Under the pieces are notes generated by a model. The model saw nothing but the letters and a program-made list of their open reading frames with translations. It was not told the origin of the DNA and did not search any database. The translations under genes were made by a program, and so were the position numbers. A DNA stretch of 64,000 nt from a virus (taxonomy: Duplodnaviria > Caudoviricetes): IMG/VR virus record IMGVR_UViG_3300023174_000037. One strand, written 5' to 3'. Below, piece by piece: positions 7,501-64,000 of the stretch. Positions within the stretch are counted from its first letter, which is position 1. Each line of letters begins with the position of its first letter.

Positions 7501-10500
7501 CAAAGCCGTGTTAACGTTGTAGCAACAGTTGCCGCTGAGTGGAATGGCCAACTAGACGCACAAGGATTTATAAACAACAATACACAAACAGTAAAAGAAT
7601 GGCAACCTTTGCAGAAATATACCAAAGGCGAAATTGTCATTTACAAAAATAATTATTGGCAAGCTCTTAATATCATTCAACCTTCTACACAGTGGAATCA
7701 ATCCTTGTGGTCGCAAAGTAATTACACTAGAATACAAAGTGGCCTGCTGCAAAATATTCCATTGCTGGCCAACCAATTGGCCACCAGTTACGATGTCAAC
7801 CAAGCCAACCTACAAACCGAACAAGATTTATTTGCCTTTGGACTGATTGGATTCAGACCACGTCAGTATATGACTGATTTGAATTTGGGTGATATAAGCC
7901 AAGTTAATCTGTATCAACAGTTGATCAAAGACAAAGGCACTCTCAACAGTGTGCGTTTGTTGACCAATACCAATCTCAACAAAGAAACTGCACAGTATCA
8001 GGTGTATGAAAATTGGGGAATTCAACGAGGCATATATGGCGCCAATGCCAATCGTAGATTTGTTGAAATGCGACTCAACGAAGCATTGTTAACATCAAAT
8101 CCAGGAACGGTGCAAATCATTGCTCCTCAAGAAGTTAGTGTAGCCGATCAAACCATATTGTATGAAAATTTATGGAGAGAAAGTTATAATGTAACCAGTC
8201 CAGATATTTTTCCAACTGCCATTATGCCAGTTGCAGATTCTGCATTGCCCAGCGCAGGATACGTAAATTTAGAAGACGTAGATATAACAGTGTTTGATCT
8301 TGATGGTCAACTAGGACTAGCCGATGGTGTGTTAAACACCATTGGTATTGGAACCACAGTTTGGGCTGCAAAAAGCAATGCCTACGATTGGAATGTTTAT
8401 AGATGTACCGAGGTTCCAGGTTATATAAGTTCTGCTGCGCCAAACCTTAACGGCACTGCAATTGTAACATTTACCCAGCCACCTGGGTTAGTAGTGGGCG
8501 ATGTCCTTATAATTAGATTTTTAGACCCCACAGTCGACGGAGTATACAATGTAATAGCGTTACCTGGGTTAACCTCAGTCGCAATAGCGTTGACAATATC
8601 AAATACTGTAACCGGCACCGGCTTAGGATTCAGCCTACAGACCATGCGTGTCAATCAGGCCAGCGATGTGTTGAATCTGCCTTATACAGCGGCGCTGGGC
8701 CCAGGTGCCAAGGTTTGGGTAGACAACGACGGAACTGGGCACTGGGAAGTTTTGGAAAAAACTGATCCTTTTACCGATGTTGGAGCCATTGAGCCAACAG
8801 TGCCAGCTGTTGATTCAGGTTATGGTAGTGCTGTTGCACAGGCATATCAAAATATTGTTGCCATGGTAGGAGCCCCGGGCTATGGAACCGCTGGTGCAAT
8901 TTATACCTATGTTAAAGATGTCACCGACAGTTACTCTGAGAATTCTATTTTATTGTTGAATGCTGATCAAACTCTTGGCTTTGGCAATGCTATGCAGATA
9001 GGATATCAAAATTGGGCTGTGGCCGGCGCCAGTGCAAGTAGAAGTAATCAAGGTTATGCTGTTGCAATATATCGAGCCACAGGCAGCACAGCATTTGAAC
9101 AACGTCAGCTATTGATACCACCCGACGGTGACTATAGCAATGCTGAATTTGGCTACAGTGTAACTGTGAGCCAAGACGAGCAATGGATGTATGTGTCGGC
9201 TCCGGGACAAAATAAAGTTTATCCATATGGTCGTGTAACCATACCAGGCCAGACCGCACAATTTATTACTCCGGGCACTTATCGAGTTTATGATGTAGGC
9301 GGCATTATTGAATTTGACAACGAATTACAACTAGCAGTGGTATTAAACAACGAACTGTTGACCATTGGTGTTGATTATACTGTGGGCGGCACTGTTGTTA
9401 ACCTAGCCGGAATTCCAGTAGAAGGTCAAAAATTAATAATAACACGCAAAGTTCAACAAGATTACATTGGCGACGGTGTTGAAACTGTTTTTGATCTAGG
9501 ACCATTCTTATACACAGCTGACAATATTGATAGTTTTGTTGTGTCGGTTAATGAAGTAATACAAGTTCCTGATTTTGATTATACATTCAGTGCTACTGGT
9601 GATTATCCAATAACATTTACGACCGCTCCAGATGCCGATAGTGCAATTAAAATATTAACTGGAACTTATTGGCAACCAATGGATGCCATTGAAGGGCCGG
9701 CATCCTCAAGATTTGGTTCAGCTATTCATACCACAACGGACGGTCGCCAAATTATCATTGGCGCCAGCGCCGACGAATCAGACCCGGGGTTAAATTCTGG
9801 AGCAGTTTATGTGTTCAATCGCAGCGTAACACGTTACATCATAAGTGATACTACACAGCTCACTTATGCGTTACCGGCGGGCTATCAAGATCCTGTGGCA
9901 GTGATTTTAAATAGTGTATACTTGACCAACACAGCTCAATATATCAATGGCCAATTCACAGTAACTGGTGGTGATGTAGTATTAGGTGTTGCACTAAATG
10001 TAGGTGATGTATTAGAAATTGAAAGTAATATTTTCACTCAAGTTCAAAAGATAGTACCAGAGGCCCCATATGATGAATCCGCGTTTGGTGCTGCAGTTGA
10101 TATCTGTCCAAATAACTGTAGTATATACACAGGTGCTCCTGTTGACGGAACAATACTGTTAGCAGCCGGTTCAGTGCAACGAAATGTCAACCAGGCTCGA
10201 GTGTATGGAACAATCACATCTACCAACGCAAATCCTACATTGACTGCTGGTGACACTATACTTGTTAATAACATGCCAGTGGCAGTTCCTGCCAGCCCAA
10301 ACAATACAGTTACTGGACTAAAAAATGCTATTATCGCAGCCGCAATACCCAATGTCACTGCTTCTGTGGCCGCTGGATTGTTGACCATCAACATAGTAAA
10401 TGTTGCGGCCGCTGACGCATACAACAGATTGACTGTGTGGCCTGGAATAACTGGCACAGCATTTGACGATCTTGGATTCAACACATATGCATATACTCAA

Positions 10501-13500
10501 ACTATTGTCAGTCCAAATCCATCTGCCAGTGCAAACTTTGGTGCCGCACTAAACATTGACACAACAGCATTGACACTGGTAGTTGGCGCACCACGTGGTG
10601 ATTTGTACGAAGCTGTGATTTTTGACAACGGAACTACATATTTTGACGATCGTAGCACCACATTCTTTAACGAGATTTTAGAAAGTGGTGTGGTATATAC
10701 TTTTGATTATCTGTCCAGTGCCACTGACACAGTTACAAATCCTGGAAATTTTGTCTTTGGTCAACAAGTATATGATAATCAGACAAACACTGCGGACCAA
10801 TGGGGTGCAGCTGTTAATTACACCACTGGTAAACTACTAATAGGAAGTCCAACTGGCGCAGACAATTACGGCCGGGTTGGACAATTTATCAACTTAGATC
10901 GATTGCCTGCATGGAAGATACTGCGTCGCCAGCAACCAGTGGTTGATGTTGCGTTGTTAAACAGTGTATACATGTATAACAAATTACAAAGTCAAGAAAC
11001 ATATTTCTTTGATTTCATTGATCCGTTGCAAGGTAAGATACTAGGAGTTGCTAGACAAAATATTGATTTTATTAGTCAAGTGAATCCAGCTCAGTATAAC
11101 TTTGGGCCGATCAATAATATTGGTAACTTCTGGGGTTCAGAACGAGTAGGAACCATCTGGTGGGACACAACAAATGCACGATTCATTGATCCAAATCAAG
11201 ACAACATTGTGTATTCTAGTCGCCGATGGGGACAATTATTCCCTTCCAGCACAGTGGATATCTATCAATGGGTTGCCAGCTCAACACCACCAGCTGGCTA
11301 CACCGGTGAAGGAACACCATTAAATACCACCAGCTATTCAGTGAGAGCACAGTTAACTACTACTGGCACGTTTGAAACTGTTTATTATTTCTGGGTCACA
11401 GGAATTACAACCATTGCTATCAATGAAGGAAAAACTCTCAGTACCACTGGCATTGCCAGATATATTGAAGAGCCACGCAGTAGCGGAATACCTTATATTG
11501 CCGCACTCAACGCCAGCACAGTGGCAATCTATAATGGATCGCAATATCTTTCAGCCTTTGACACAATACTGCACGTGGATTTTTCACAAGAATTATCAGA
11601 CGCAAATATTCATACTGAATTCCAATTGATTGCTGACGGAAATCCAAACAGTTTCCTTGCTGATAATCTTTATCAGAAGTTACAAGACAGTTTCTGCGGA
11701 TACAATCAAAATGGCGCTCAGGTTCCTGATCCATTCCTAAGTCCTCCAGAACAGTATGGTGTAGCGTTTAGTCCACGCCAGAGTTTGTTTGTTAATCGTT
11801 TACTAGCATTAGAAAACTATCTAACTAGAACCAACGAAATACTAAAGTATTTGCCTATTGTTGAACAGCGCAGATTTATATTGTTAAATTCTAGCGAACC
11901 TGTTCCAGCTGCAGGCAGTGAAGAATACAACAAAGTGTTGGATAACATTGAACAGTTAAGTTTTCAAAATCTAAACCAAGTTCCGTTGGGATACAAATAT
12001 TTAATTCTGTCAGACAGCACATTTAATGGCGCCTGGACAATTTATGAGGTTATTCTAGCGTCCAATGCTCCTGCGGCTCCTAAAGTCACACAGTTGTTTA
12101 GAATTCAGAATTTTAATACAAAAAATTATTGGTACCATATTGATTGGTATAGATTGGGTTACAATTCTTCAACAACACCAGTTGCCCAAGTTCCAAATTA
12201 CGCTAGCCTTGTAACACTCAATGTCACAGTAGGTAGCAGTGTCAAAGTTACAGCCAACGCTCAAAATAAATGGGAAATATATCTCAGAACCGACACTGGA
12301 TGGGATCGTGTTGGTCTACAAGATGGCACTATTGCGTTTGATAACACCTTGTGGGATTATGCCGCCGGCCGTTATGGATTTGACGCCGAAGTGTTTGATG
12401 CCCAGTATTATGATCAAGAACCTGTAATAGAAACACGAAATATCATACAAGCAATTAACAATGAGTTATTCATAAATGACCTGGCTATTTTCAAGAATCA
12501 ATTGTTAATTTTAATGTTCAAGTTTATATTAACCGAAGAACAGGCGCCAGACTGGCTGATGAAGACCAGCTTTATCAATGTTCGTCACGATATCAGATCA
12601 TTGTTGCCGTTTCCAACGTATCGTCAAGACAATCAAGATTTTGTGTCAGACTACCTGCAAGAAGTTAAGCCATATCATGTGCAGGTTAAACAGTTTAATT
12701 TGGTATACAAAGGACAAGATGAATATCCTGGATTTGCCACGGACTTTGACAATCCACCATACTACGATACCTCGCTAGAAATACCGCAGTTTGTCAGCCC
12801 AATTTTATTACCGTATACCAAGAGCACTGCGGTAGGAACCGGCCGGCCTAGTGACATTGCAGATACACCAGCCAACGCAGAGATATGGGCAACAACACCT
12901 TGGCAAGAATGGTACAACAATTATTTGTTAAGTTTAACGTCAGTCAGTGTTACTGCAACAGGATCTGGATATGCCACAGAACCAGAAGTGATCATTGGAA
13001 CCGAATGGACAGCCGACACAGCGTATACGCTAGGTCAACAGGTATTTTATGGATCCAATTTATATTCAGTAACTGTGGCCGGAACTTCTGCTGATGTTCC
13101 GCCATCATGGGTCACTGGTAGTGAACTAAGTGGTACAGCCACATTAACCTATGTTGGAACGCCGGCCACAGCGGTAGCAGTTATCAATTCTCAACTGCAG
13201 GTGATAGCAGTCAATGTTGTTGATGACGGTGCCGGGTATACAACAAATCCTGTGATAACATTTGTAAGCGCCACTGGTACAGGCGCACAAGCTCGGGCCA
13301 ACATGGGCAATCCGCTGGTTCGAGAATTCAATTTGACTATTAAGTATGACCGCTACGAGTATGTAAGCACTATTACTGATTGGAATTATTTGGTAGCTGT
13401 GTATCCGGCCAACACGCAAGTTCGATTTGCAGACACTGTATGGCAAGCAATTGATACTGTAACCAACACTCCAATTGTGCTCAATTCAACAGGAACCGCT

Positions 13501-16392
13501 GGCGAATACACATTGACTGTGCCATCAACTACAGGGCTGGCCACTGGTATGATTGTAACCGGTCTTGGAATCCCAGCTGATACTACTGTTACTGAAATTA
13601 ACGAAGTTGACAATATTGTAACAATGAGTCGTGCGGTGTTGCAGTCAATCACATCAAAGCCCGTAAATTTCTATAGTCCATTTGTAGTTGAAGAATGGGA
13701 TCGAGTACCAGCCAGCACACTAAGTGGTATCAACCGAACACAAGGTTTTTACTTGCCAACAGTTGACCAGCCTGGCCGTAGTTTGCCATTGCTGATAGAC
13801 GGGCTAAACTATCCTGGAGTGCAGGTGTATGGACTGGGATTTGACTTCAATACTGGATATGACGTAGGCAACTATGACATCAATCCATTTGACAATATCA
13901 GCTATGGACCTGAAGGTTTTCCAACTTACGATCCGGCATTGTTAGATGCCACCTATTCAAGTTCATTTGATGATGTGTTCTTGGGAACCAGACCAGCAGA
14001 TATCAATGTCAACGGCGGCGGATACATAGATGAATTTAGCAGTTATGCACCAGAAGAATTAGTTCCAGGCAGTGAGTTTGATACTTTAGATTTCCGTGTT
14101 TATACCTCTCCGGGATTTGATAACACTGGGCTTGGACACGGATTCCCAGCAGCGTCACAGAGATTTGTGTATGATCCAGCAAATCCTGTGTTGAGTTTTG
14201 CAGGGTTTTTAAAGCATCCATTTACAGTTGTTGTGTTTAATGCAACTTCAGGATTGGCTATTGAACCAACTAATTATGATTGGGCCAACTATGAAGTCAC
14301 AATTGATCCAGCAACATCCAATGCTGGAGATATTATAAATCTTTATATAACTGGTGTCGGCGGCGGCAATCAGTTGTATCTCAACACTTATAACCAAGCG
14401 GCGCTTGATGAAATAGTAGTGCCTTTTGCAGTGCCATCTGTATACAACATTACCACAACATACACATGGGGTGATGTAGTTTCCTACAATGGTGATTTTT
14501 ATCGCGCCACAGCAGTAACCACTGGAAATCTTCCAGTCAATTTGGTTGGTTGGACACTGGTGTCCAGCGCCGCAGTGATTTATCAAATATTGATCTACAA
14601 CGGCGAAGAACAACTAGAAGCTGGAACTGACTATACTGTCTCGAGCAGTGGTGGTTCGACCACAGTTACATTTGCTACAACATACGATAATACTGCACGT
14701 ATTAATCTAGCTGTGTTTGGATATGCAGTTGATGGGCCAACTCATAGTTGGAGCCTGCCTGTGTTCCAAACTTTGGAAGCTACCGGCGGAACTACAGTTG
14801 ACTTAATTAATAGTCTACAAGGCACCAACGCAGTTAATCTTATTATAGTAGTCAACGGGCAAAGACTTAATCCGTATCAAGGCAGCGAATACGTGGGTGA
14901 TAACGTAACCGTTGAATATGAGTTGCCTAACAGTTATGGGTACGACCCTGCGTTAGTGTCTGATAACGATGTGTTTGTATTTGTTGACAATGTTAAATTA
15001 ATCCAAGACTTGGACTATGTAGTTGACGCTTACGACGGAATATCTGATTATAGAACCATAACATTCACTACAGCCCCAGTCACTGGATCTAAAATACTAT
15101 TGTCGGTTGCAACTGAATGTGGATATCGATTATACAACCAATCGTTAACATTCCTGCCTGGCAACATACCAGCCGCTGGAGATATTGTTGAAATAATAAC
15201 TTGGAATGATACTTCAGAACAAAGATTGTTGACCGAAGTGTTTGTTGGGCCTGGCACGATCAATAATAACACATTTGATCTTGGACGCGAAGTTACTAAC
15301 CCAGAAAGAATGTTAGTGACACTAAATGGTTATTGGTTGTTCAATGGCATTGACTTTGTGTTCAATGGTACAACTATAACCATTTCAGGTCAAACTATTA
15401 TATCAACAGATGTGGTAGCAGTCACACTCTTTACTGACAGAGTGGTTCCAGACCCAATGGCTTTCCGCATATTCCAAGATATGCGTCAAGTTCAGGCTAC
15501 CTATAGAATTACTCCCAGCACTACAACTACATTAGTTCAACCTGTTGAAATAGCAGACGACATAATTTACGTAGAGGATGCATCAGCGTTAAGTGAACCA
15601 AACTTTGCCACATCATACTCCAATAATATTTCATATAACCTTGGTGCTGTAGTCATATATGGTACTGAGTTTTATCAGGCCATTGCATTTACCACTGGGA
15701 ATTTGCCAACTGATACTGATTACTGGGAGTTAACTGATGGTGCTGCAAATATTTGGGGGATCCTTACTGTCAACGGTGAACGTATTTTGTATCGTAATAG
15801 AGACACTGTGACCAATACCGTCAGTGGACTGTTGCGTGGCACAGCCGGAACGGCAATTACTACTCACAACGTGGGAACATACGTTTACAACATGGGACGT
15901 GAAAACTTAATGCCGCTGGGTTGCCAGAATTATGTGGTATCAAACATAACTAATCCGTTGGAATCCGGAGTAAACCTAGGCGACGGAACCACTATAGAAT
16001 TCGTAGCCAGTGATATATCTTTGGTGATCGCCGGTGCTACAGCTTGGGTAGTATCAAATACTTACGCCTCTGGAGCTGCTGTGGTCAACAGCGGCAACTA
16101 CTATAGAGCAATCATTGCCGTTCCAGCCAACACCGCTATAACCAATACCACTTACTGGGAACCAATGAGTAACGCGGTTGAAGTGTATGTGGGCGGAGCT
16201 AGAATTCCTAATACTGACTACACTATGACTAGTCAAAATCCTGTTACTGTAGAATTTGATACAGCACCACCTGATGGCGCAGAAGTAGCGATCCTAGTTA
16301 AACGAGCACACACCTGGTACAACGTAGATACACCAAACTTGCCGCTTAACGAGACTGACACTATTTGTGCAAGGTTTTTACAGGGACAATAA
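1594..16392 (+). CDS. Giant 4932-aa multidomain virion structural protein (baseplate/tail-associated adhesin-like)
   Basis: Uninterrupted 14.8-kb ORF between structural genes. Contains 7 FG-GAP-like repeats, about 6 CBM5/12-like modules, GxGY-x3-P repeats and repeated 'V(Y/F)VN-x2-L-x4-DY(T/V)V' beta modules. Confidence 0.8.
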   Translation: MARTRSVDFLPEIFQTSTNRQVLAATLDQMIQEPQLKQIQGFVGRRVGPGVIPGDYYVAEPTATRTNYQLEPGVVQIDPTDSKKVVDAITYPGITDALNLQGAVTQNADQLYTSEYYAWDPFVDFDKYVNYAQYYWLPGGPDAVDVFTGAKPLTDNFVVTRANGNYTFSGESGENPTLTLVRGGSYTFQIAQNEASSVNFRVSNQGTSAWVIDYVNNPTLTLVRGNTYTFTLVSTPALPFYIKTQQTLGINNLFTDGVTNNGAATGTITFVVPQNAPDTLYYNNSTQMNMQGVFTIVDASPGTGPNFWIQTSPGVNGRIPATPNISSRLGPVNGVTNNGIDLGTITFEVPSKNDQDFYYSLPYINTNGGQVNLITDLQFDQLNNVFVDQFLAEYPNGIDGITNLQGRTIVFTEPDPDPSAGGWLVKSQFDPLVRTAPPATPVIAGPGSFDSLEFDQTTPIADVAIQRSVWQIQYVTADGGGQYMRLTSIYDIPDLYKFNIQFGEVYSSTSWYKDENGAFQQIPLLAAIQDRLYYQDGIDPGIFGEINVIDQSAADSLDILDILGKKNYISPNGVVFTNGLKVQFNGSVVPAGYQGNNYYVEGVGTAIQLLPVTDFVTPETYTQSSSVPYDSTLYDFGNYDASLNQPAQPDYLTINRSSPDLNPWTRSNRWFHVSVIEQSAAYNNSVLIVDNALRARRPILEFRGGTRLIDFGTKGKQPVDIIDLTNTDAFSTVNGATGYGVDGYNLINGSRIIFAADIDPDVRDKIYVVEFITPDTVPPLIAEPVINLVPATDADVLVDNSVVCLSGLTLQGKSFWFDGVSWITSQQKTSVNQAPLFDVYDANGVSFSDPIVYPSSDFRGSKLFSYAPSSNGKDPVLGFAIKYLSLSNIGDIVFDNNLYTDTFNYTVDSVGYTKNISLGFVREYQDRVTYQRELGWQTAVVPSRARQQFQFNYDGTPLQLDVAALSSTVIPSIQLFVSSEFQAPYKYSVATTADSTTITWTDASYDNGVAFATGDIIEVLVLSDQASKVAFYQVPINLENNPLNVNSPYFTVGTARTHYESICENLLDLVGPINGNNNTRDLGNIIPYGTSIIQNSAPMTLAGYFMRSKQYNIFDSLAYSSREYEQYKAQLLNAVVTTDYTNYTIPAMLTAVVTQLVAGRTQVNPFYWTDMLPANPVYTSTTTTYSLISTPVFNLNTTYDFTSSNYQSVLVYVNDVLLQTNYDYVVSTDAPSLTITVPLNVGDVITIQEYATTYGTFVPNTPTKLGLYPAFQPKIYLDTTYVNPTLVIQGHDGSLTVAFGDFRDQLLLEFETRIFNNLKIKSEVPLTLTDVTPGQFRSTGYSLAEINDILAPSFLSWLGWNKLTYAEQTYNSANQFTWNYSAAGNRLSGSTTGTELPLPVGAWRGIYQYFYDTPTPQSTPWEMLGFSQEPDWWTETYGPAPYTSGNLILWEDLAAGKVADPAGAYYLPKYARPGLVMYGAGNISMQSGGSGYSAQTTVTISNPPAGDYSTPATLGTPVIVGGVIVSIPVTNPGRGYTSPPDIIIKDLGGGTGARASCTLTRVQDVIPVDSEGNLLSPFFSVVGLYDSSQWQKSWVFGDEGPVEYSWRTSSAFPFAVMRLLALTRPAKFFSLFADRDLYKYDADLEQYLYNQRYRLDANGVEVYGNGLSKASYIDWIVDYNRQLGINSTDKLAEDLSLLDVRLCYRMGTFTDKQYLSIIAETSSPDSTNSSLLIPDNSYNLLVYKNQPFSQTLYSAVVIQVVDGGWSVTGYSLTNPYFEILASRTGGPTRVITAGGTRVTVPTTYTQNVVQVPYGYVFTNQTVVADFLLSYGALLESQGLVFDARENGTTLNWNQMVQEYLYWANQGWMTGSVISLNPTAQELTLVTPEAIVDSIVTQTPENLILDQNRTTIPSSQLVIDRYENTFKVTSLNEQTISYIALRSTSYESLVILDNVSVFGDLLYDPATGARQSRVNVVATVAAEWNGQLDAQGFINNNTQTVKEWQPLQKYTKGEIVIYKNNYWQALNIIQPSTQWNQSLWSQSNYTRIQSGLLQNIPLLANQLATSYDVNQANLQTEQDLFAFGLIGFRPRQYMTDLNLGDISQVNLYQQLIKDKGTLNSVRLLTNTNLNKETAQYQVYENWGIQRGIYGANANRRFVEMRLNEALLTSNPGTVQIIAPQEVSVADQTILYENLWRESYNVTSPDIFPTAIMPVADSALPSAGYVNLEDVDITVFDLDGQLGLADGVLNTIGIGTTVWAAKSNAYDWNVYRCTEVPGYISSAAPNLNGTAIVTFTQPPGLVVGDVLIIRFLDPTVDGVYNVIALPGLTSVAIALTISNTVTGTGLGFSLQTMRVNQASDVLNLPYTAALGPGAKVWVDNDGTGHWEVLEKTDPFTDVGAIEPTVPAVDSGYGSAVAQAYQNIVAMVGAPGYGTAGAIYTYVKDVTDSYSENSILLLNADQTLGFGNAMQIGYQNWAVAGASASRSNQGYAVAIYRATGSTAFEQRQLLIPPDGDYSNAEFGYSVTVSQDEQWMYVSAPGQNKVYPYGRVTIPGQTAQFITPGTYRVYDVGGIIEFDNELQLAVVLNNELLTIGVDYTVGGTVVNLAGIPVEGQKLIITRKVQQDYIGDGVETVFDLGPFLYTADNIDSFVVSVNEVIQVPDFDYTFSATGDYPITFTTAPDADSAIKILTGTYWQPMDAIEGPASSRFGSAIHTTTDGRQIIIGASADESDPGLNSGAVYVFNRSVTRYIISDTTQLTYALPAGYQDPVAVILNSVYLTNTAQYINGQFTVTGGDVVLGVALNVGDVLEIESNIFTQVQKIVPEAPYDESAFGAAVDICPNNCSIYTGAPVDGTILLAAGSVQRNVNQARVYGTITSTNANPTLTAGDTILVNNMPVAVPASPNNTVTGLKNAIIAAAIPNVTASVAAGLLTINIVNVAAADAYNRLTVWPGITGTAFDDLGFNTYAYTQTIVSPNPSASANFGAALNIDTTALTLVVGAPRGDLYEAVIFDNGTTYFDDRSTTFFNEILESGVVYTFDYLSSATDTVTNPGNFVFGQQVYDNQTNTADQWGAAVNYTTGKLLIGSPTGADNYGRVGQFINLDRLPAWKILRRQQPVVDVALLNSVYMYNKLQSQETYFFDFIDPLQGKILGVARQNIDFISQVNPAQYNFGPINNIGNFWGSERVGTIWWDTTNARFIDPNQDNIVYSSRRWGQLFPSSTVDIYQWVASSTPPAGYTGEGTPLNTTSYSVRAQLTTTGTFETVYYFWVTGITTIAINEGKTLSTTGIARYIEEPRSSGIPYIAALNASTVAIYNGSQYLSAFDTILHVDFSQELSDANIHTEFQLIADGNPNSFLADNLYQKLQDSFCGYNQNGAQVPDPFLSPPEQYGVAFSPRQSLFVNRLLALENYLTRTNEILKYLPIVEQRRFILLNSSEPVPAAGSEEYNKVLDNIEQLSFQNLNQVPLGYKYLILSDSTFNGAWTIYEVILASNAPAAPKVTQLFRIQNFNTKNYWYHIDWYRLGYNSSTTPVAQVPNYASLVTLNVTVGSSVKVTANAQNKWEIYLRTDTGWDRVGLQDGTIAFDNTLWDYAAGRYGFDAEVFDAQYYDQEPVIETRNIIQAINNELFINDLAIFKNQLLILMFKFILTEEQAPDWLMKTSFINVRHDIRSLLPFPTYRQDNQDFVSDYLQEVKPYHVQVKQFNLVYKGQDEYPGFATDFDNPPYYDTSLEIPQFVSPILLPYTKSTAVGTGRPSDIADTPANAEIWATTPWQEWYNNYLLSLTSVSVTATGSGYATEPEVIIGTEWTADTAYTLGQQVFYGSNLYSVTVAGTSADVPPSWVTGSELSGTATLTYVGTPATAVAVINSQLQVIAVNVVDDGAGYTTNPVITFVSATGTGAQARANMGNPLVREFNLTIKYDRYEYVSTITDWNYLVAVYPANTQVRFADTVWQAIDTVTNTPIVLNSTGTAGEYTLTVPSTTGLATGMIVTGLGIPADTTVTEINEVDNIVTMSRAVLQSITSKPVNFYSPFVVEEWDRVPASTLSGINRTQGFYLPTVDQPGRSLPLLIDGLNYPGVQVYGLGFDFNTGYDVGNYDINPFDNISYGPEGFPTYDPALLDATYSSSFDDVFLGTRPADINVNGGGYIDEFSSYAPEELVPGSEFDTLDFRVYTSPGFDNTGLGHGFPAASQRFVYDPANPVLSFAGFLKHPFTVVVFNATSGLAIEPTNYDWANYEVTIDPATSNAGDIINLYITGVGGGNQLYLNTYNQAALDEIVVPFAVPSVYNITTTYTWGDVVSYNGDFYRATAVTTGNLPVNLVGWTLVSSAAVIYQILIYNGEEQLEAGTDYTVSSSGGSTTVTFATTYDNTARINLAVFGYAVDGPTHSWSLPVFQTLEATGGTTVDLINSLQGTNAVNLIIVVNGQRLNPYQGSEYVGDNVTVEYELPNSYGYDPALVSDNDVFVFVDNVKLIQDLDYVVDAYDGISDYRTITFTTAPVTGSKILLSVATECGYRLYNQSLTFLPGNIPAAGDIVEIITWNDTSEQRLLTEVFVGPGTINNNTFDLGREVTNPERMLVTLNGYWLFNGIDFVFNGTTITISGQTIISTDVVAVTLFTDRVVPDPMAFRIFQDMRQVQATYRITPSTTTTLVQPVEIADDIIYVEDASALSEPNFATSYSNNISYNLGAVVIYGTEFYQAIAFTTGNLPTDTDYWELTDGAANIWGILTVNGERILYRNRDTVTNTVSGLLRGTAGTAITTHNVGTYVYNMGRENLMPLGCQNYVVSNITNPLESGVNLGDGTTIEFVASDISLVIAGATAWVVSNTYASGAAVVNSGNYYRAIIAVPANTAITNTTYWEPMSNAVEVYVGGARIPNTDYTMTSQNPVTVEFDTAPPDGAEVAILVKRAHTWYNVDTPNLPLNETDTICARFLQGQ

Positions 16393-55367: not shown

Positions 55368-55537
55368 TATCCCCACCTCAACATAAACAACACATAATCA
55401 CTGTCTAACTCAAACTCAAACACACCTTCTGAGATAAACAACCAAGGTCCTTCACAAGTTTGGCTACACCAATCAATGCAAGGTTGCCAACCTTGATATG
55501 GTGTCTTGTTCGGTGGCATGATACTGGCTATTTTCAT
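55367..55537 (-). CDS. 56-aa protein, C-terminal 'FxLRW' family (not in ORF track)
   Basis: MKIASIMPPNKTPYQGWQPCIDWCSQTCEGPWLFISEGVFEFELDSDYVLFMLRWG*; ATGA overlap with the radical SAM stop. Confidence 0.7.
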   Translation of the reverse strand: MKIASIMPPNKTPYQGWQPCIDWCSQTCEGPWLFISEGVFEFELDSDYVLFMLRWG

Positions 55538-57051
55538 TTAAGCACTAATAACCTGGCCTGTTCTAGTTCTGGAATGTAATTGCCTAATTGACTTCCTCTA
55601 GCTTGATCTAATTGATCATTGTATCGAAAAAATTCAATAAGAATGTTAGGGTCATAATCGTAATTTTTAAATCGATCAATAATTTCATTTATAACATAAC
55701 TGGTATTTCTTCCGCCGTTGTAATAAACTTTAGTCTCTCGGCAACGATACATTGATTCTAACACTTGTTCTCGCAATGGATTATGCCAGGGTCCTAGATA
55801 TGATCCTACACCGCCTGCAGGTTGAACTAGACTATTACATTTAGGAAAATCTCTATCATAAAATTCGTAAATTTCATGAACACGGGTAGCATTCCACATA
55901 CTAATTACTGTTTGAAATCCTATAGTATGCCCTTGTTCTAGTATACGGAAGCAATTGTCTCGCATGGTATCAAAGTTGCTGCCCCATCTAACGTAGTCAT
56001 TAATCTTTTTGTAACCATCAAAACTTACGCTAAATGTTACACTGGGAAATTCCTTCAAGAGGTCTAACAAGGTATTACTGATTTTTTGTGCATTGGTTCC
56101 GATGTTTAAGTCAAATTCAGTTTGATTTTGTTTGATACAGCGTCTTAGGAACGCATAAAACTCAGGAAAAATAGTAGGTTCTCCTCCTGCCCAGTATATA
56201 CGTTTTACAGTATCAAAATCAATTTTATCATATGGAAACTCTTGGAAATTCCAATTGTCTGTGACCACTGGAATACCGAGTCGTATATTTTCTTCTTCAA
56301 TCAGATGACTGTGCTTGTCATCGCACATGCGGCACATTATATTACACTTATTACTAGGACGTATTTCATAATTAACAGGATATTTTATATTTTTTAAATC
56401 TTCCTTGTCAGTTAATCTGAGATCTACGGCCCATTCTAAAGATTCAAATTGTCTAGCACTTTCACCGTTGTGTTCTTCTCGTTCATAGCAGATGTTGCAT
56501 TTCTCTGGCATTTGAATTCCAGACAACATGTTATTTCTGATAGGAGCAAAAGCCGAGTCGGTTGACCAATCTTCAATTAGATCAATTTTGGTTACAGGAT
56601 CTGGGCATTTCGGGCACATAACTGCTGATCCGTAATCGTTTATTAAATTTAAAAAAGGCAATGCACACAATGCCTTATTGGTCCTTAGTAAATTATACCA
56701 ATACAAGATATCCTTGTTACTGCTATTGTTTTTGAATACAGTGTTATATCCTTTTTCCTCTAGTTCTATCATGAGTCTAAAGGTGTTTACAAATGATTTC
56801 CAATGTGGATACAAATCTACGCTTAGATCCAACATTACAATTGAATCAAATTTTGGCGCAAGGTTAAGAACAATATCACCGGGTGAAACATCGGCTATGC
56901 TAGTATGGTAATAACCGAATTCATTAATGGAAAAATTATCAGAAGATATCAATCCGTGATTGGTGGTTGCATCCTTGGCAGCAAGTGTGCTGGTCAGTTG
57001 GTCTGTTAGTTCTGTTTCATTACCGATACATAAGATTTTTTTATTAAACAT
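55534..57051 (-). CDS. Radical SAM protein with extra N-terminal domain and auxiliary Fe-S domain
   Basis: About 125-aa N-terminal extension, LCALPF, MCP, CNICY, then CNIMCRMC and AGGEPT. Confidence 0.85.
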   Translation of the reverse strand: MFNKKILCIGNETELTDQLTSTLAAKDATTNHGLISSDNFSINEFGYYHTSIADVSPGDIVLNLAPKFDSIVMLDLSVDLYPHWKSFVNTFRLMIELEEKGYNTVFKNNSSNKDILYWYNLLRTNKALCALPFLNLINDYGSAVMCPKCPDPVTKIDLIEDWSTDSAFAPIRNNMLSGIQMPEKCNICYEREEHNGESARQFESLEWAVDLRLTDKEDLKNIKYPVNYEIRPSNKCNIMCRMCDDKHSHLIEEENIRLGIPVVTDNWNFQEFPYDKIDFDTVKRIYWAGGEPTIFPEFYAFLRRCIKQNQTEFDLNIGTNAQKISNTLLDLLKEFPSVTFSVSFDGYKKINDYVRWGSNFDTMRDNCFRILEQGHTIGFQTVISMWNATRVHEIYEFYDRDFPKCNSLVQPAGGVGSYLGPWHNPLREQVLESMYRCRETKVYYNGGRNTSYVINEIIDRFKNYDYDPNILIEFFRYNDQLDQARGSQLGNYIPELEQARLLVLK

Positions 57052-59383: not shown

Positions 59384-59412
59384 ATTATAGCAAAATAGGT
59401 ATTTCGGGTCAA
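59384..59412 (-). promoter_or_regulatory. Sigma70 early promoter (TTGACC-17-TATAAT)
   Basis: Near-consensus. Confidence 0.85.
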
Positions 59413-59435: not shown

Positions 59436-60419
59436 TTACAGTTTAACAAAGTGCTTCTCTTCAAGATTTCTGTATAGCGGTTTCATGTGCGAGCTAAAAG
59501 ATAGGGCATCTCTGAATCGTTGATTGGCTGGACTACATGCATCAACCCAGCGACTATCACCGATCTGTAAAATCAGACTGATAATTTCTAACAAGATATT
59601 CTTACTCTGTGTATATTGTGTATTTCTACGATGCCAAAAATTGTCCGACGGTGTGACAGTATGCACTGATGCCAGATTGTCTTGCCACATCATCAACAAT
59701 GCTGAAACAGACAATCCTAATTTCTTATAATCATAATCAACATTGATATTGGTGTGTTTAATATATTCTCCAAGATCTTGATACAACGACATTACAATTC
59801 CGAGATAGTTGGTTACAAAACAATAGTCACTCATATTAGTGATATGGAAAAATTCTGGAGAATTCTCGTGATATTTTCTATAACCTAAGATACTATTAAC
59901 TGGCAACTCATAACGGTCTAGAGTAATTGATCCTGGCCGTGCAATTTGCATACCAATTGGTGTAGTGTAACTCATGTCAATGGCAGGCCCGGCCTCTGCA
60001 AAGTCAATCATTACATAAGCTTCGGTGTCATCTACTGGTACACGAAAAATTCCAAAGTCGGCACGATCCACTAGAGAAATCCATTGCTTGGTTCCTGACA
60101 CTACGTTACCATCCAACCGCATTGAGTCGGCCGCTTTGAAATTGCTAAAACATCCAATTTGATTTTCATATGTAGGATCGTAAAACTCTGGCAACTGATT
60201 TTGAAACTTGGTTTCAATATGTAAACGTGGATAATGGTTGTGTTGAACACAATGAGCAATACTGAGATCATATTTGGCCAAGGTCAACAAATTATGAAAC
60301 CACTGCTCGCGTTTGGTTGTAGTTGATCGAGCAATATTCAAATCAAAGTAAGGCTTTAACTTTTTTAAAGTGTCTCGATTAAAATCAGTTACATCAGTTT
60401 GTATTAACGTTTCTATCAT
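59436..60419 (-). CDS. Divergent acyl-CoA dehydrogenase-like flavoprotein
   Basis: 'LAKYDLSIAHCVQHN' and 'VVSGTKQWISLVDRADF' resemble ACAD N/middle domains (DxS..., GxKxWIS). Confidence 0.55.
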   Translation of the reverse strand: MIETLIQTDVTDFNRDTLKKLKPYFDLNIARSTTTKREQWFHNLLTLAKYDLSIAHCVQHNHYPRLHIETKFQNQLPEFYDPTYENQIGCFSNFKAADSMRLDGNVVSGTKQWISLVDRADFGIFRVPVDDTEAYVMIDFAEAGPAIDMSYTTPIGMQIARPGSITLDRYELPVNSILGYRKYHENSPEFFHITNMSDYCFVTNYLGIVMSLYQDLGEYIKHTNINVDYDYKKLGLSVSALLMMWQDNLASVHTVTPSDNFWHRRNTQYTQSKNILLEIISLILQIGDSRWVDACSPANQRFRDALSFSSHMKPLYRNLEEKHFVKL

Positions 60420-61540
60420 TATGCGCCCAGGTCGTATTCTTTACTGAACATCAGTCGAAGATTTACTAATTGGTTCTTTTCTCTGAGGTATTGATTGTCA
60501 TTCACAAAATCCATAAGTCTAGTTTCGCTTTGTAAGTTAAACAATCCTTTGACATAGTTTAATGCGGTTGTATTGTCGTTCTTTAAGAATCCTTGTAGTG
60601 TTGGATCTGGATTGGCAATTAAATCAGCGTAGGATTTTTCACCACTTACATCTATACTAAAATATTGGTCGCTACGCATTTTTTGTAAATGACTAGCACC
60701 ATCACTTACTTCTGGATGACGTCCACAGGCTGTGGCCCAGCCCCTGTAACCATCAGGAGTACGAAGCCATTTTGCTTCGGCCCAGTCACCATCATACAGT
60801 GGTAAATTATTTGTTGCTATGTGTCGTTTAACTGCGTGTTTAACAAGATGATTTTGTTTGATATTGATCAATGGTTCCAAGAAAAAACGATTCAAGTGAT
60901 CGTAGCTCATGGTCTGACGTAGCGGACTATCAAGGTGTCTGGCATACCAACGCCCTTGTCTGTAGACCAGTCTTGGCTTTTCAAATCCGGCCACTGCCGT
61001 CCATCGTTTACCTGCATGATTGCGTTCAATCAGGTGCTTGACACCTTCTGCGCCAGTGCTCATACCAAACATCAACAAGTCACCTTTGTTTTTCCATACC
61101 CAATCTTCGTCTGGGCAATCAAGACTTCTTAAAGTGGTATCATTTTGATCGTAACGAGTAATGATGGTGGTTGGGTCATAATGGTTGGCCCGGATCCAAT
61201 CCACATGATGATCTGGATACTGTGCCAAGTGTGCTGATGCTTTAATTAATATTTCGTCAATGCGTATATTGGCACGTTTAAAAATATTATAGATAGTATG
61301 ACTGTCTGTGCCACCCGACCACAACAGTATTACACGTTCGTATTGTGATCTTAAACTCAGTGCATGAGCAGTCATTAATTCATCCAATGACTGCTCGGGC
61401 TCTACAGTCCAATCAAATTGATCATACAAGCTGTCTCTACAGTAAAACTCCACTGGATTGCCTGATGTCATTGCTTCCATCAAGGCAGGGTAGATATTGT
61501 ATATAAACTTGTGACCAACTCGATAGGCTATAGTATCCAT
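60419..61540 (-). CDS. PP-loop (N-type) ATP pyrophosphatase, asparagine-synthetase/QueC-like superfamily
   Basis: 'VILLWSGGTDSHT' SGGxDS motif. Confidence 0.65.
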   Translation of the reverse strand: MDTIAYRVGHKFIYNIYPALMEAMTSGNPVEFYCRDSLYDQFDWTVEPEQSLDELMTAHALSLRSQYERVILLWSGGTDSHTIYNIFKRANIRIDEILIKASAHLAQYPDHHVDWIRANHYDPTTIITRYDQNDTTLRSLDCPDEDWVWKNKGDLLMFGMSTGAEGVKHLIERNHAGKRWTAVAGFEKPRLVYRQGRWYARHLDSPLRQTMSYDHLNRFFLEPLINIKQNHLVKHAVKRHIATNNLPLYDGDWAEAKWLRTPDGYRGWATACGRHPEVSDGASHLQKMRSDQYFSIDVSGEKSYADLIANPDPTLQGFLKNDNTTALNYVKGLFNLQSETRLMDFVNDNQYLREKNQLVNLRLMFSKEYDLGA

Positions 61541-61543
61541 GTA

Positions 61544-62521
61544 TTACTCGATGCTTTTTGCTACATTTCGCATGATGTTCAAAGTGTTGACTTGAACTTG
61601 GCGTTGATCTTCAGGAGTGCCCCCAAAGTTAGCAATGTGCAACATTTCAATATCCTTAACATATTTTGGATTTTTCAATGCAGTGTTGACCACAGTGTTG
61701 ATTTGTGCAATGACTTCACGCGGTGTGCCGGCTGGAGCATACAGTCCATACCAAATTGGCACGTCAACTGCTGGAACACGATTAGCAATGCTGACAAGTC
61801 GTGCATCTGGCACATCTTTCTTGACAATAGCAACACCACGTCGATCCAGCGCGGCAATAATTTTAACTTTGCCTGCTTTGAAATGCGGATTCATTGCGGT
61901 GTAGGTATCAAACACAAATGGAACATGTCCACCTAATATGTCGGCCACTTGCGGTGCTGAACCTTTGTAGAAAACAATATTGGGTCGTGGCAGTCCTTCT
62001 CGCTTGGCCCACTCGTAAAAAATGTTACCGGTGTAGGTATTCCAAAATCCCAAATTGAATTTTTCTGGATTTTTCTTCACATACTCCTTGAATTCGTCAT
62101 ATGTGTTTACAGGAACATTGTTGGCCACAGCCAAAACCGCTGTGCCAGCACCCAATGAGATAATTGGATCAAAACTGTTTTCGGTATATTCAATACCGGG
62201 TGCCCGTTGTCGAAAGGCAATGTTGGCATCAATAAATCCATTTCCGCCAACGTAGATAGTGTGACCATCTGGTCGAGCTGCCGCAACATAATTGCTACCA
62301 ATCACAGTGTCGGCACCAGGTTTGTTTATCACAACACTCTTCCAACCTTGAGCCTGGAAGATTTCATCCAACACACGACCCCATTTGTCTGTGGCACCAC
62401 CAGGTGGGTACGGCACTACAATTTCAACAGTTTTGGTTGTGGGTGTAAATCCTTGCGCTGACACAATTGAGGCCAAGGCAACTAGCATGCCAAAGATGGC
62501 AACTTTTAATAATCGAAACAT
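61544..62521 (-). CDS. Bug/TctC tripartite tricarboxylate transporter substrate-binding protein
   Basis: AGGAG SD; signal peptide MFRLLKVAIFGMLVALASIVSA; 'VPYPPGGATD', 'NKPGA', 'PDGHT', 'YKGSAP', 'WYGLYAPAGTP'. Confidence 0.9.
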   Translation of the reverse strand: MFRLLKVAIFGMLVALASIVSAQGFTPTTKTVEIVVPYPPGGATDKWGRVLDEIFQAQGWKSVVINKPGADTVIGSNYVAAARPDGHTIYVGGNGFIDANIAFRQRAPGIEYTENSFDPIISLGAGTAVLAVANNVPVNTYDEFKEYVKKNPEKFNLGFWNTYTGNIFYEWAKREGLPRPNIVFYKGSAPQVADILGGHVPFVFDTYTAMNPHFKAGKVKIIAALDRRGVAIVKKDVPDARLVSIANRVPAVDVPIWYGLYAPAGTPREVIAQINTVVNTALKNPKYVKDIEMLHIANFGGTPEDQRQVQVNTLNIMRNVAKSIE

Positions 62522-62597
62522 TTGTTTTTCTCCTAAATTTGAAAGTTTCTTTAAGAGCTTGCAGAAGAACTCTGCTACGGCTCGGCGTTCTGCATTA

Positions 62598-62626
62598 ATA
62601 ATACAGTAAAGACATTGCAATGTCAA
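62598..62626 (-). promoter_or_regulatory. Sigma70 promoter (TTGACA-17-TATTAT) for the Bug gene
   Basis: Perfect -35, near-consensus -10, 17-bp spacer. Confidence 0.7.
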
Positions 62627-62672
62627 GCGTCGATTTGAATGCCGACGTCGGAGGAATCCGGCGTTGCAAGAA

Positions 62673-62680
62673 TATTTATA
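62673..62680 (-). promoter_or_regulatory. Perfect T4-type late promoter TATAAATA
   Basis: Exact consensus immediately after the halogenase-like stop. Confidence 0.6.
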
Positions 62681-64000
62681 CTAGTAATTTAACTCGTCAA
62701 AGATTTCGTCAGATGTTTTGCCATCAAATCTGTTTTCCTTAAGCCATTCGTAGTAGTTTGGCCATTTGGATTCACGAATATACTTGTTTCTTGCTTGATT
62801 ATACTGACAAAACGCCGTGAACATTTCCAAATCACGATCTGTTGGGCGCGGTAACTTGAATTTAGAAACATCAACATTACAACTAACAACTAATCTGGCG
62901 TAGGCCTGTTGCCAGTTCCAGGTCAGTCGTGAATTAATACCGCTGGTTTTCATTTCAATAATGTCTTGAAGTTGCTCTAGAAAATGTTCGTCTTGGGCTC
63001 GTTGTCTTTGTAGATCCCAAAAGTTGCCAGTCTTGTTGGAAAATCCCAGCATGAGAGTCATTCTTAATGCCACTTCGTCCAATACGGGTTTTTGTAATGC
63101 GTTGTATTGAGTTTCAATGTCTTGAATCGACAACTCATGCTGATTCAGTAACTTGATAAGATTTTCTAATCCCCGACTGTGGGTTCCAATTAGATTGCCA
63201 TCAAACGGATGAATCAATCCTGATGCCAGTCCAAACGCAATGGTGTTACCATAGCATGATCGTTCATAATAGCCTGACTTCCACGAAATCACCAAGGGAT
63301 CGGTTACTTTATAATCACCAGCCTTGGACTGTAGATACTCGTGTATCTTGTCTTTTTCTGCCATAGAACTCATATAGCAATAGCCGTTGCCAGTTCTGTG
63401 ATACAGATTTATTTTAAATCCCCAGCCGTGTTCCAGGCCCGAGAACGTTGTGGCTCCAACCATTTCTGTATGTGGGTCAGTGTATTTTCGTGGATAGACC
63501 ATGGCACTGTCGGGCGCATATTTTGAATGATCAATCCATGATTGATTATCTAGTCGAGACATAATTACTCGTCTAAAACCAGTTAGGTCCAAATACATAT
63601 CACCAACAATATTTTTGTGACTGTCTGTTACTACACTAGTAATGTGTCCGTTGTGATCTTGTTCAATATCCTGTATCACTGCATCAATTTCTTCGACCTG
63701 ACCTGGAAAGTTAGCAATACAAATGTCGCGCATTAGAATAGCAGTTTTATCAGCATCAAAATGATAGGAGAATCCGTCATTGGGTCTCAGTATATAATTG
63801 TTGTTGGCGTCGTAAGGTGCCTTTGGAACGCTTGAAAAATATTGGGTATCAATAATATCATCAACCATCTGATTCATAGTCCGAGGGTTTTGTTGATGTG
63901 CCCATAACCAAGTATCGATGATGCCGGCATCGCCGGGTCGTGCTGTCCATGTTTCATAATAGTCAGGATAGTCAAACGCAGAATAAAATTTGACAAGACT
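62681..64000 (-). CDS. Tryptophan-halogenase-family flavoprotein (5'-truncated by window edge)
   Basis: Frame is open to 64000. 'YHFDA', 'YLDLTGFRRVI', 'GWGFKINL.HRTGNGY.Y', 'GLASGLIHPFDG' follow the PrnA-family layout with degenerate motifs. Confidence 0.7.
   Translation of the reverse strand, partial: SLVKFYSAFDYPDYYETWTARPGDAGIIDTWLWAHQQNPRTMNQMVDDIIDTQYFSSVPKAPYDANNNYILRPNDGFSYHFDADKTAILMRDICIANFPGQVEEIDAVIQDIEQDHNGHITSVVTDSHKNIVGDMYLDLTGFRRVIMSRLDNQSWIDHSKYAPDSAMVYPRKYTDPHTEMVGATTFSGLEHGWGFKINLYHRTGNGYCYMSSMAEKDKIHEYLQSKAGDYKVTDPLVISWKSGYYERSCYGNTIAFGLASGLIHPFDGNLIGTHSRGLENLIKLLNQHELSIQDIETQYNALQKPVLDEVALRMTLMLGFSNKTGNFWDLQRQRAQDEHFLEQLQDIIEMKTSGINSRLTWNWQQAYARLVVSCNVDVSKFKLPRPTDRDLEMFTAFCQYNQARNKYIRESKWPNYYEWLKENRFDGKTSDEIFDELNY

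Follow-up and report, generated by a model that had tools for sequence, protein, structure and literature searches.

A recurrent pairing of a TctC-type solute receptor with a PP-loop enzyme in large aquatic phages

Solute receptors of the TctC/Bug family are known from bacterial TctABC transport systems and, as orphan receptors, from Bordetella and other Betaproteobacteria, where many Bug genes adjoin enzyme genes instead of TctAB. Phages also encode periplasmic binding proteins, and PstS of cyanophages serves as an auxiliary metabolic gene. A second group of proteins that is relevant here is the AsnB fold family, to which lasso-peptide cyclases and beta-lactam synthetases belong. In this study, an operon encoding a TctC/Bug-family receptor, a PP-loop enzyme and a flavoprotein-like protein of the acyl-CoA dehydrogenase (ACAD) fold is described from a 64,000-nucleotide stretch of viral DNA (Caudoviricetes; IMG/VR record IMGVR_UViG_3300023174_000037), hereafter the window. 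The operon combines known superfamilies in a virus-specific, widespread and uncharacterised cassette. Its receptor and PP-loop genes recur together in highly divergent phages.

The minus-strand interval 59436–64000 is filled by four co-oriented genes. These genes and the signals that delimit the operon are listed in the direction of transcription.

62681..>64000, minus strand: halogenase-family gene, C-terminal 439 codons; the open reading frame is still open at the window end.
62673..62680, minus strand: TATAAATA, a T4 late-promoter-like motif, directly after the halogenase stop codon and at the left edge of the conserved leader.
62598..62626, minus strand: sigma-70-type promoter TTGACA-17-TATTAT, matching 11 of 12 consensus positions, at the head of the TctC operon.
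62522..62597, minus strand: 5′ leader with a small GCAGA/TCTGC hairpin and an AGGAG Shine–Dalgarno sequence, recognised by its conservation in relatives.
61544..62521, minus strand (listed open reading frame 61544..62626): TctC/Bug-family receptor, 325 residues, assigned by Pfam TctC and a signal peptide.
60419..61540, minus strand: PP-loop enzyme, 373 residues, assigned by an SGGTDS motif and structural matches.
59436..60419, minus strand: ACAD-fold flavoprotein-like protein, 327 residues, assigned by fold matches to its model.
59384..59412, minus strand: next sigma-70-type promoter, TTGACC-17-TATAAT, matching 11 of 12 positions with a TG extension, 24 nucleotides past the ACAD-like stop codon.

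The receptor gene ends in TAA and is followed by TAC and the ATG of the PP-loop gene, leaving a gap of 3 nucleotides. The PP-loop stop codon and the ACAD-like start codon have TAATG in common, and the ACAD-like gene is translationally coupled to the PP-loop gene. These junctions, read directly from the sequence, agree with the preliminary description of the region as four co-oriented genes with a 3-nucleotide gap and a TAATG overlap. The four family assignments made there were likewise confirmed, by Pfam for the halogenase and the receptor and by structure for the PP-loop and ACAD-like proteins. The proposed four-gene unit did not hold, since a promoter and a conserved leader sit between the halogenase and TctC genes and place the halogenase outside. 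The operon thus comprises three genes, in the order TctC, PP-loop and ACAD-like, and the promoter at 59384..59412 appears to mark its downstream end.

The region between the halogenase stop and the TctC start spans 159 nucleotides (62522–62680, minus strand). In an upstream-region alignment (A3) of seven relatives, whose proteins are 78–94% identical, the −35 element is invariant, a TATAAT-like −10 element is kept and the leader is nearly invariant, with the Shine–Dalgarno sequence inside the conserved stretch. Conservation starts at the late-like motif, whose core TAAATA is invariant in all seven relatives, and the conserved region also holds GC-rich hairpins 5′ of the −35 element. The leader is conserved irrespective of the gene that precedes it, which can be the halogenase, a gene of 151 codons, DctP or a small open reading frame. 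An Rfam search with the leader returned no match, and its consensus fold displayed no informative covariation, the variation being too low to test pairing. TATAAATA occurs once in the window, compared with 4.8 copies expected by chance, and the count of this motif therefore carries no weight. Both the early-type and the late-type promoter that had been noted for the four genes are present, but they head the three-gene unit.

The receptor gene had been listed from a TTG start at 62626. An ATG at 62521 is preceded by AGGAG and opens with a signal peptide, and this ATG is most likely the real start, giving a protein of 325 residues. The N-terminus is basic and continues into a hydrophobic segment ending in V-S-A, as in a Sec signal peptide. 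A hydrophobicity scan located an N-terminal hydrophobic signal segment in 26 of 26 distinct phage TctC-like proteins. The receptor matches Pfam TctC (PF03401) at 5.2e-29 (102 bits; cut-off 27), and an NCBIfam search with it gave no match. Its closest solved chains are 2dvz_A (8e-38), which we take to be glutamate-bound BugE, and BugD (2.7e-28), and both ligand-loop motifs align.

The phage receptor therefore resembles the receptors of TctABC systems and the orphan Bug receptors in family, signal peptide and the two ligand-loop motifs. It matches the solved Bug-type proteins (2dvz_A, BugD, Bug27 and the terephthalate- and adipate-binding proteins) at 8e-38 to 5e-18, and its solved relatives overall at 8e-38 to 2.5e-15. 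Its gene adjoins enzyme genes instead of TctAB, as many bacterial Bug genes do. Unlike its bacterial counterparts, it comes from giant phages of the lytic type and is tied to a PP-loop enzyme that is found only in phages. By analogy to cyanophage PstS, an exported high-affinity receptor supplied by the phage would plug into a host transporter. The TctC receptor differs from PstS in being fixed to a dedicated cytoplasmic enzyme, in often being multiplied and in sometimes being accompanied by its own permease subunit. The receptor had no relative among prokaryote genomes scanned at one per species, which left no clue to the host, and tblastn against phage isolates produced a single weak match, to an unannotated faecal phage contig.

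The linkage of the receptor and PP-loop genes was analysed in 39 metagenomic loci, in which genes were classified by local profile searches and clustering and PP-loop genes were made distinct at 90% clusters. Among the 30 distinct PP-loop genes, 18 have a TctC-like gene directly beside them, five have one within two genes and three have one within five genes. All linked pairs lie on the same strand. The pairing persists to 22–35% identity and occurs in both gene orders, and the stop codon of one gene often overlaps the start codon of the next. Two or three paralogous pairs are present in several loci (L016, L018, L019, L022, L023 and L025; record G004), and a 98%-complete relative of 354 kb contains three PP-loop and two TctC genes. 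The pairwise distances of the PP-loop proteins and of their partner receptors correlate with a Mantel r of 0.88 (0 of 5000 permutations). The fixed core of the cassette in the relatives is thus TctC plus PP-loop. A TRAP-type (tripartite ATP-independent periplasmic) DctP receptor (Pfam 2.2e-39) is located just upstream of the pair in six loci (L009, L012, L015, L016, L018 and L022), and some phages thus carry receptors of two transporter classes side by side. A literature search found no paper on a TctC/PP-loop cassette, only passing mentions of a tctA domain match, in SUP05 viral contigs (PMC4164917; repeated in the review PMC6359870).

The genes that flank the core are less constant, as a comparison of the nearest relatives by PP-loop identity to the window demonstrates.

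L005/L008: 94% identity; halogenase present; ACAD-like present.
L014: 90% identity (partial gene); halogenase present; contig ends before the ACAD-like position.
L009–L011: 87% identity; halogenase absent; ACAD-like absent; DctP neighbour.
L012: 86% identity; halogenase absent; ACAD-like absent; DctP neighbour.
L013: 84% identity; halogenase present; ACAD-like present.
L001/L002: 78% identity; halogenase absent; ACAD-like present.

Such variation among close relatives, with both the halogenase and the ACAD-like gene missing at 86–87% identity, is what a mosaic island would give, in which auxiliary genes with no relation to one another have accumulated in a hypervariable stretch upstream of conserved AAA/DUF2201 genes. 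The DctP and radical SAM genes that appear in other loci, and an ACAD-like gene that stands alone in L043, point in the same direction. The genes of such an island would share no pathway, and TctC and PP-loop would be neighbours only through common descent. This explanation is unlikely in our judgement. The depth to which the pair is kept, its two gene orders, its start/stop overlaps and the several paralogous pairs per genome argue against it, as do the recurrence of PP-loop/TctA adjacency on an unrelated 4.5-kb contig and the conserved promoter and leader that the cassette has of its own.

The PP-loop protein carries SGGTDS at residues 75–80, a motif that is invariant in 30 homologues. It was modelled with AlphaFold2, as was the ACAD-like protein, from alignments of 30 metagenomic homologues each. 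In the PP-loop model (predicted local distance difference test score, pLDDT, 93), strand 69–74 is followed by helix 78–89, and SGGTDS is positioned at the β1-α1 junction of a Rossmann-like domain. Foldseek matches of the model are nearly all PP-loop enzymes down to an E-value of 0.03, although they are weak (E about 2e-3). An exhaustive structural search (VIA) retrieved about 30 PP-loop enzymes at Z-scores of 5–9.6, including AsnB, LarE, TilS, NAD and GMP synthetases and PAPS reductases. The top matches are the human and E. coli asparagine synthetases (Z 9.6 and 9.1; 276 residues, root-mean-square deviation 5.8, 9–10% identity), followed by beta-lactam synthetase (8.4), carbapenam synthetase (8.0) and TsnB9 (7.9), with other PP-loop enzymes at 6.7 or below. 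In the ESM Atlas, three viral-labelled clusters (TM-score 0.78–0.82) are followed by Asn_synthase clusters (0.51–0.57), and a language-model search agrees with this ranking. The PP-loop assignment holds in Foldseek, VIA and the Atlas alike, and the model identifies the 373-residue protein as a probable PP-loop enzyme whose fold is closest to the synthetase half of AsnB.

Sequence comparison leaves the protein outside described families. It has no match in Pfam (E ≤ 0.01), Asn_synthase (PF00733) included, and none in NCBIfam or PHROG. Ten distant family members have no Pfam match at E ≤ 0.05, and sequence and profile searches of solved structures yielded nothing meaningful. A search for Pfam Asn_synthase in five related phage records gave only sub-threshold matches at the PP-loop level, in other genes. 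The synthetase domain of AsnB, the beta-lactam and carbapenam synthetases and TsnB9 present SGGxDS at the same structural position as the phage enzyme and are its best structural neighbours over about 250–276 residues (Z 7.9–9.6). The phage enzyme differs from them in its size of about 370 residues, in its identity of 7–10% and in lacking both a PF00733 match and a glutaminase domain. The PP-loop domain extends from near residue 47, which leaves about 45 N-terminal residues and no N-terminal nucleophile (Ntn) glutaminase domain. By likeness to the AsnB family, the expected chemistry would be adenylation of a carboxylate followed by attack of a nitrogen nucleophile. The alignment of 30 homologues contains no conserved cysteine cluster; thiolation and nitrile-synthetase chemistry is disfavoured for that reason, and QueC-like and sulfur-transferase functions were rejected.

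Because beta-lactam synthetase, a member of the AsnB fold family, is among the best structural matches, a tailoring role on a peptide was also considered, in which the enzyme would form a lactam as a lasso-peptide cyclase does in the biosynthesis of ribosomally synthesized and post-translationally modified peptides (RiPPs). The preliminary description had offered a peptide-tailoring cassette as its alternative. No precursor-like open reading frame, leader protease or gene of the RiPP recognition element (RRE) type is conserved beside the pair, the small downstream open reading frames each have their own promoter, and the fixed partner of the enzyme is an exported solute receptor. A RiPP function is accordingly very improbable, and this candidate was rejected for want of a conserved precursor or protease beside the pair.

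A profile search of 1.84 billion representatives with the PP-loop family retrieved 1,460 clusters, with at least 1,221 50%-identity clusters at E ≤ 1e-10; the best 150 clusters listed are mostly about 370 residues long. PP-loop and ACAD-like homologues come only from metagenomes, on contigs of up to 360 kb. Searches of phage isolates (50,697 records) by tblastn gave no match for the ACAD-like protein, for the PP-loop protein or for two distant members of its family. In a scan of one genome per prokaryote species, the PP-loop profile matched only two contigs of metagenome-assembled genomes. One is a Haliscomenobacter contig (L048) that also encodes an ATP-dependent DNA ligase, a Bax1-I protein and ClpX, and the other is a 4.5-kb Chthoniobacteraceae contig (L049) on which TctA adjoins the PP-loop gene. 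L048 may be mis-binned phage DNA; for the two contigs taken together, mis-binning may or may not be the explanation.

Phage loci can also encode the TctA permease subunit of the TctABC system. TctA (Pfam 1.5e-59) is in the same operon as the pair in six deep-branching loci (L029, L031, L032, L034, L036 and L038), and the TctA gene beside the PP-loop gene in L049 (Pfam 1.6e-66) is a seventh case. Phage records G003 and G005 carry TctA as well. Full-length TctA is encoded in L029, L031, L032, L034, L036, L038, L040–L042 and L049 (Pfam up to 8.7e-142), and one 316-kb record has two copies. In contrast to the bacterial TctABC systems, TctB was recognised in none of the loci, including those with a phage TctA gene.

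Many phages in the set carry TctC without TctA, and Bug/TctC proteins can signal through sensor kinases, as BctC–BctE of Bordetella does. The exported receptor could accordingly serve periplasmic sensing or exclusion, reporting an external metabolite or blocking host uptake or receptor function, for example in superinfection exclusion or in the control of lysis timing, while the cytoplasmic enzymes have some other substrate. We consider such a role quite unlikely. At least seven loci have TctA in one operon with the pair, no gene for a signalling partner lies in the vicinity and the constant association with an enzyme would be left unexplained.

The ACAD-like protein is predicted to adopt a three-domain α/β/α structure, with helices, strands and helices in succession (pLDDT 90). 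Foldseek searches of the Protein Data Bank matched the model to acyl-CoA dehydrogenases and ACAD-fold flavin monooxygenases (E 2.5e-11; TM-score 0.70–0.75), and the Atlas matched it to bacterial ACAD clusters (0.76–0.80), so that the ACAD assignment passes structurally. It shares this fold with the ACAD superfamily, including DszC/TdsC, HsaA, KijD3, DnmZ and MAB_4123 (TM-score 0.70–0.80), but is about 50 residues shorter and has no detectable Pfam ACAD domain (E ≤ 0.01). Searches of NCBIfam and PHROG gave no match, and sequence and profile searches of solved structures yielded nothing meaningful. By eye, its G-x-K-x-W-I-S and R-D-A motifs resemble what we take to be ACAD motifs, and no glutamate follows R-D-A where enzymes of the medium-chain acyl-CoA dehydrogenase (MCAD) type presumably carry one. 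The fold matches fit a dehydrogenase and a monooxygenase alike.

The ACAD-like gene lies beside PP-loop paralogues in four different arrangements. In L018, at 52% PP-loop identity, it is upstream of the TctC/PP-loop pair. The order in L045 (203–6996) is TctC, AMP-binding enzyme, short-chain dehydrogenase/reductase (SDR), beta-keto-acid cleavage enzyme (BKACE), an unnamed 219-residue gene, PP-loop paralogue and ACAD-like, and the order in L044 (2154–8001) is AMP-binding enzyme, PP-loop paralogue, SDR, BKACE and two ACAD-like genes. These two operons, from other jumbo phages, occupy the same genomic position, upstream of AAA/DUF2201 genes. The ACAD-like gene was thus partly independent of the others in relatives, recurring beside PP-loop genes and also being absent or, in L043, alone. 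It is a recurrent but facultative partner.

Two of the highest-ranking fold matches of the ACAD-like protein, KijD3 and DnmZ, are sugar N-oxygenases. This likeness raises a biosynthetic alternative in which the PP-loop enzyme converts a carboxyl group of a sugar or other building block made by the phage to an amide, in the manner of sugar amidotransferases of the AsnB-like or PP-loop type, while the ACAD-fold protein acts as KijD3 and DnmZ do and the receptor at most supplies a precursor. The PP-loop model weakly matches an N-acetyl sugar amidotransferase from Legionella (Z 4.5), L029 and L034 have a gene for a DegT-type sugar aminotransferase next to the PP-loop gene, and radical SAM enzymes are frequent neighbours. 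However, the partners that recur most steadily are components of transport systems (TctC, TctA and DctP) and not sugar-nucleotide enzymes, and the fold matches to sugar enzymes do not surpass those to ordinary ACADs or other PP-loop enzymes. A tailoring function of this kind has, in our estimate, only a small share of the probability.

We favour instead a pathway of carboxylate uptake, ATP-dependent activation or amidation and flavin oxidation, a reading that we regard as evenly poised between right and wrong. The operon would be transcribed from its own sigma-70-type promoter, as the consensus match and its conservation suggest, and the receptor, given a signal peptide in every homologue, would be exported by Sec into the host periplasm. 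There, as a member of its family, it would bind a carboxylate and pass it to a TctA(B) permease. The permease would be that of the host in the phage of the window and phage-encoded in the deeper lineages, where the TctA and receptor genes occur together. In the cytoplasm, the PP-loop enzyme would adenylate the carboxyl group, converting ATP to AMP and PPi, and ammonia or an amine would displace AMP to give an amide or a lactam; both steps are suggested by the motif and by the fold resembling AsnB and beta-lactam synthetase. The ACAD-fold enzyme, judged by its fold, would dehydrogenate or oxygenate the substrate or product. Since the closest solved relatives of the receptor are 2dvz_A and BugD and the closest fold of the enzyme is that of asparagine synthetase, an amino-dicarboxylate of the glutamate/aspartate type is the leading guess for the substrate. 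The L045-type operon, with an AMP-forming adenylating enzyme, a dehydrogenase and a beta-keto-acid cleavage enzyme, fits small-acid metabolism.

Import or sensing followed by activation and oxidation had already been proposed for all four genes. Uptake and activation are supported by the comparative evidence, namely the TctC/PP-loop linkage across very divergent phages, sometimes with TctA, and the recurrence of the ACAD-like gene beside PP-loop paralogues, whereas the four-gene unit is not. More tentatively, the cassette might be a dedicated viral uptake-and-conversion system with which giant aquatic phages, while infecting a cell, draw a specific acid from the water and make an amide-type product that the phage needs. 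Such a product might shift nitrogen from glutamate or aspartate to glutamine or asparagine, or be a building block for a phage-specific modification, and paralogous receptor/enzyme pairs might then provide different substrate specificities.

Several observations weigh against the uptake-and-activation pathway. Four of the 30 distinct PP-loop genes have no TctC within 10 kb, and shared phage ancestry would by itself lead one to expect the correlation of distances. The enzymes encoded around the pair are diverse (radical SAM, DegT aminotransferase and oxygenases), in a manner that fits biosynthesis as well as scavenging. The PP-loop enzyme resembles asparagine synthetase in structure only, and moderately so (Z 9.6 at a deviation of 5.8, with no Pfam match). 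Neither TctA nor TctB was seen in the 64-kb window or in its 43%-complete closest relative, a 156-kb fragment, and TctA is also absent from the 98%-complete relative with three PP-loop and two TctC genes; uptake would therefore depend on a host permease.

The halogenase-family gene upstream of the operon is cut by the window end, and its N-terminus is absent. The encoded part matches Pfam Trp_halogenase (PF04820) at 1.8e-36 (126 bits; cut-off 21), over profile positions 150–416 only, and phrog_2928 at 7.9e-40; an NCBIfam search with it gave no match. A full-length orthologue of 541 residues (P0203) is encoded by the 156-kb relative (L005) and matches solved tryptophan halogenases and cyanophage VirX1 at 5e-31 to 1e-27 (VirX1 1.1e-27). 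Like VirX1 and the bacterial tryptophan halogenases, P0203 belongs to this Pfam family, keeps the GxGxxG motif (GAGFSG at residue 9) and has a lysine that aligns with that of 9luq_A, the residue on which the halogenating species is carried in halogenases. In contrast to them, it reads W-G-F-K-I-N at the WxWxIP motif (G-W-Q-W-Q-I-P of 9luq_A is replaced by G-W-G-F-K-I-N) and has a histidine for the first glutamate (E-P-L-E-S is replaced by H-P-F-D-G), both positions being, as we assume, essential halogenase sites. Halogenating activity is doubtful because the WxWxIP motif and the conserved glutamate are not matched.

The halogenase occurs only in the closest relatives and is absent from L001, L009 and L012. 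This independent occurrence, with absence at 78–87% PP-loop identity, and its location upstream of the promoter contradict its earlier placement in the cassette, and the gene is a lineage-specific neighbour. Upstream of the halogenase in L005, beyond the position at which the window ends, an oxygenase of the Asp/Arg-hydroxylase family and two small conserved genes are encoded (L005:4724–6122). The gene of 151 codons upstream of the halogenase in L005 sits directly before TctC in relatives that have no halogenase.

Other differences concern the wider setting. The closest relative has an additional radical SAM gene of 387 codons, missing from the window, between a 109-residue gene and the 505-residue radical SAM gene (L005:13330–16010 compared with window positions 55534–57051, minus strand). 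In L003, a 505-residue protein with Pfam Radical_SAM and weak B12-binding matches is encoded two genes upstream of the TctC/PP-loop pair, and similar proteins of about 490–550 residues are encoded near the pair in L020 and L028. On the plus strand, window positions 1594–16392 form one open reading frame of 4,932 codons. The stretch recurs almost verbatim in lake and freshwater metagenomes from several studies dated 2018–2025, and a megablast search of the region against 50,697 phage records returned no match.

The auxiliary metabolic genes that phages carry have for the most part been copied from hosts and encode single enzymes. The cassette described here is a portable unit under its own promoter, made up of a receptor, an enzyme of a virus-specific family for which Pfam has no model and, in some lineages, a permease subunit. 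If the proposed pathway is correct, large freshwater and marine phages would alter what the infected cell takes up and the use that it makes of it, which would matter for how carbon and nitrogen move through lakes and oceans, and a function would be assigned to a large orphan protein family.

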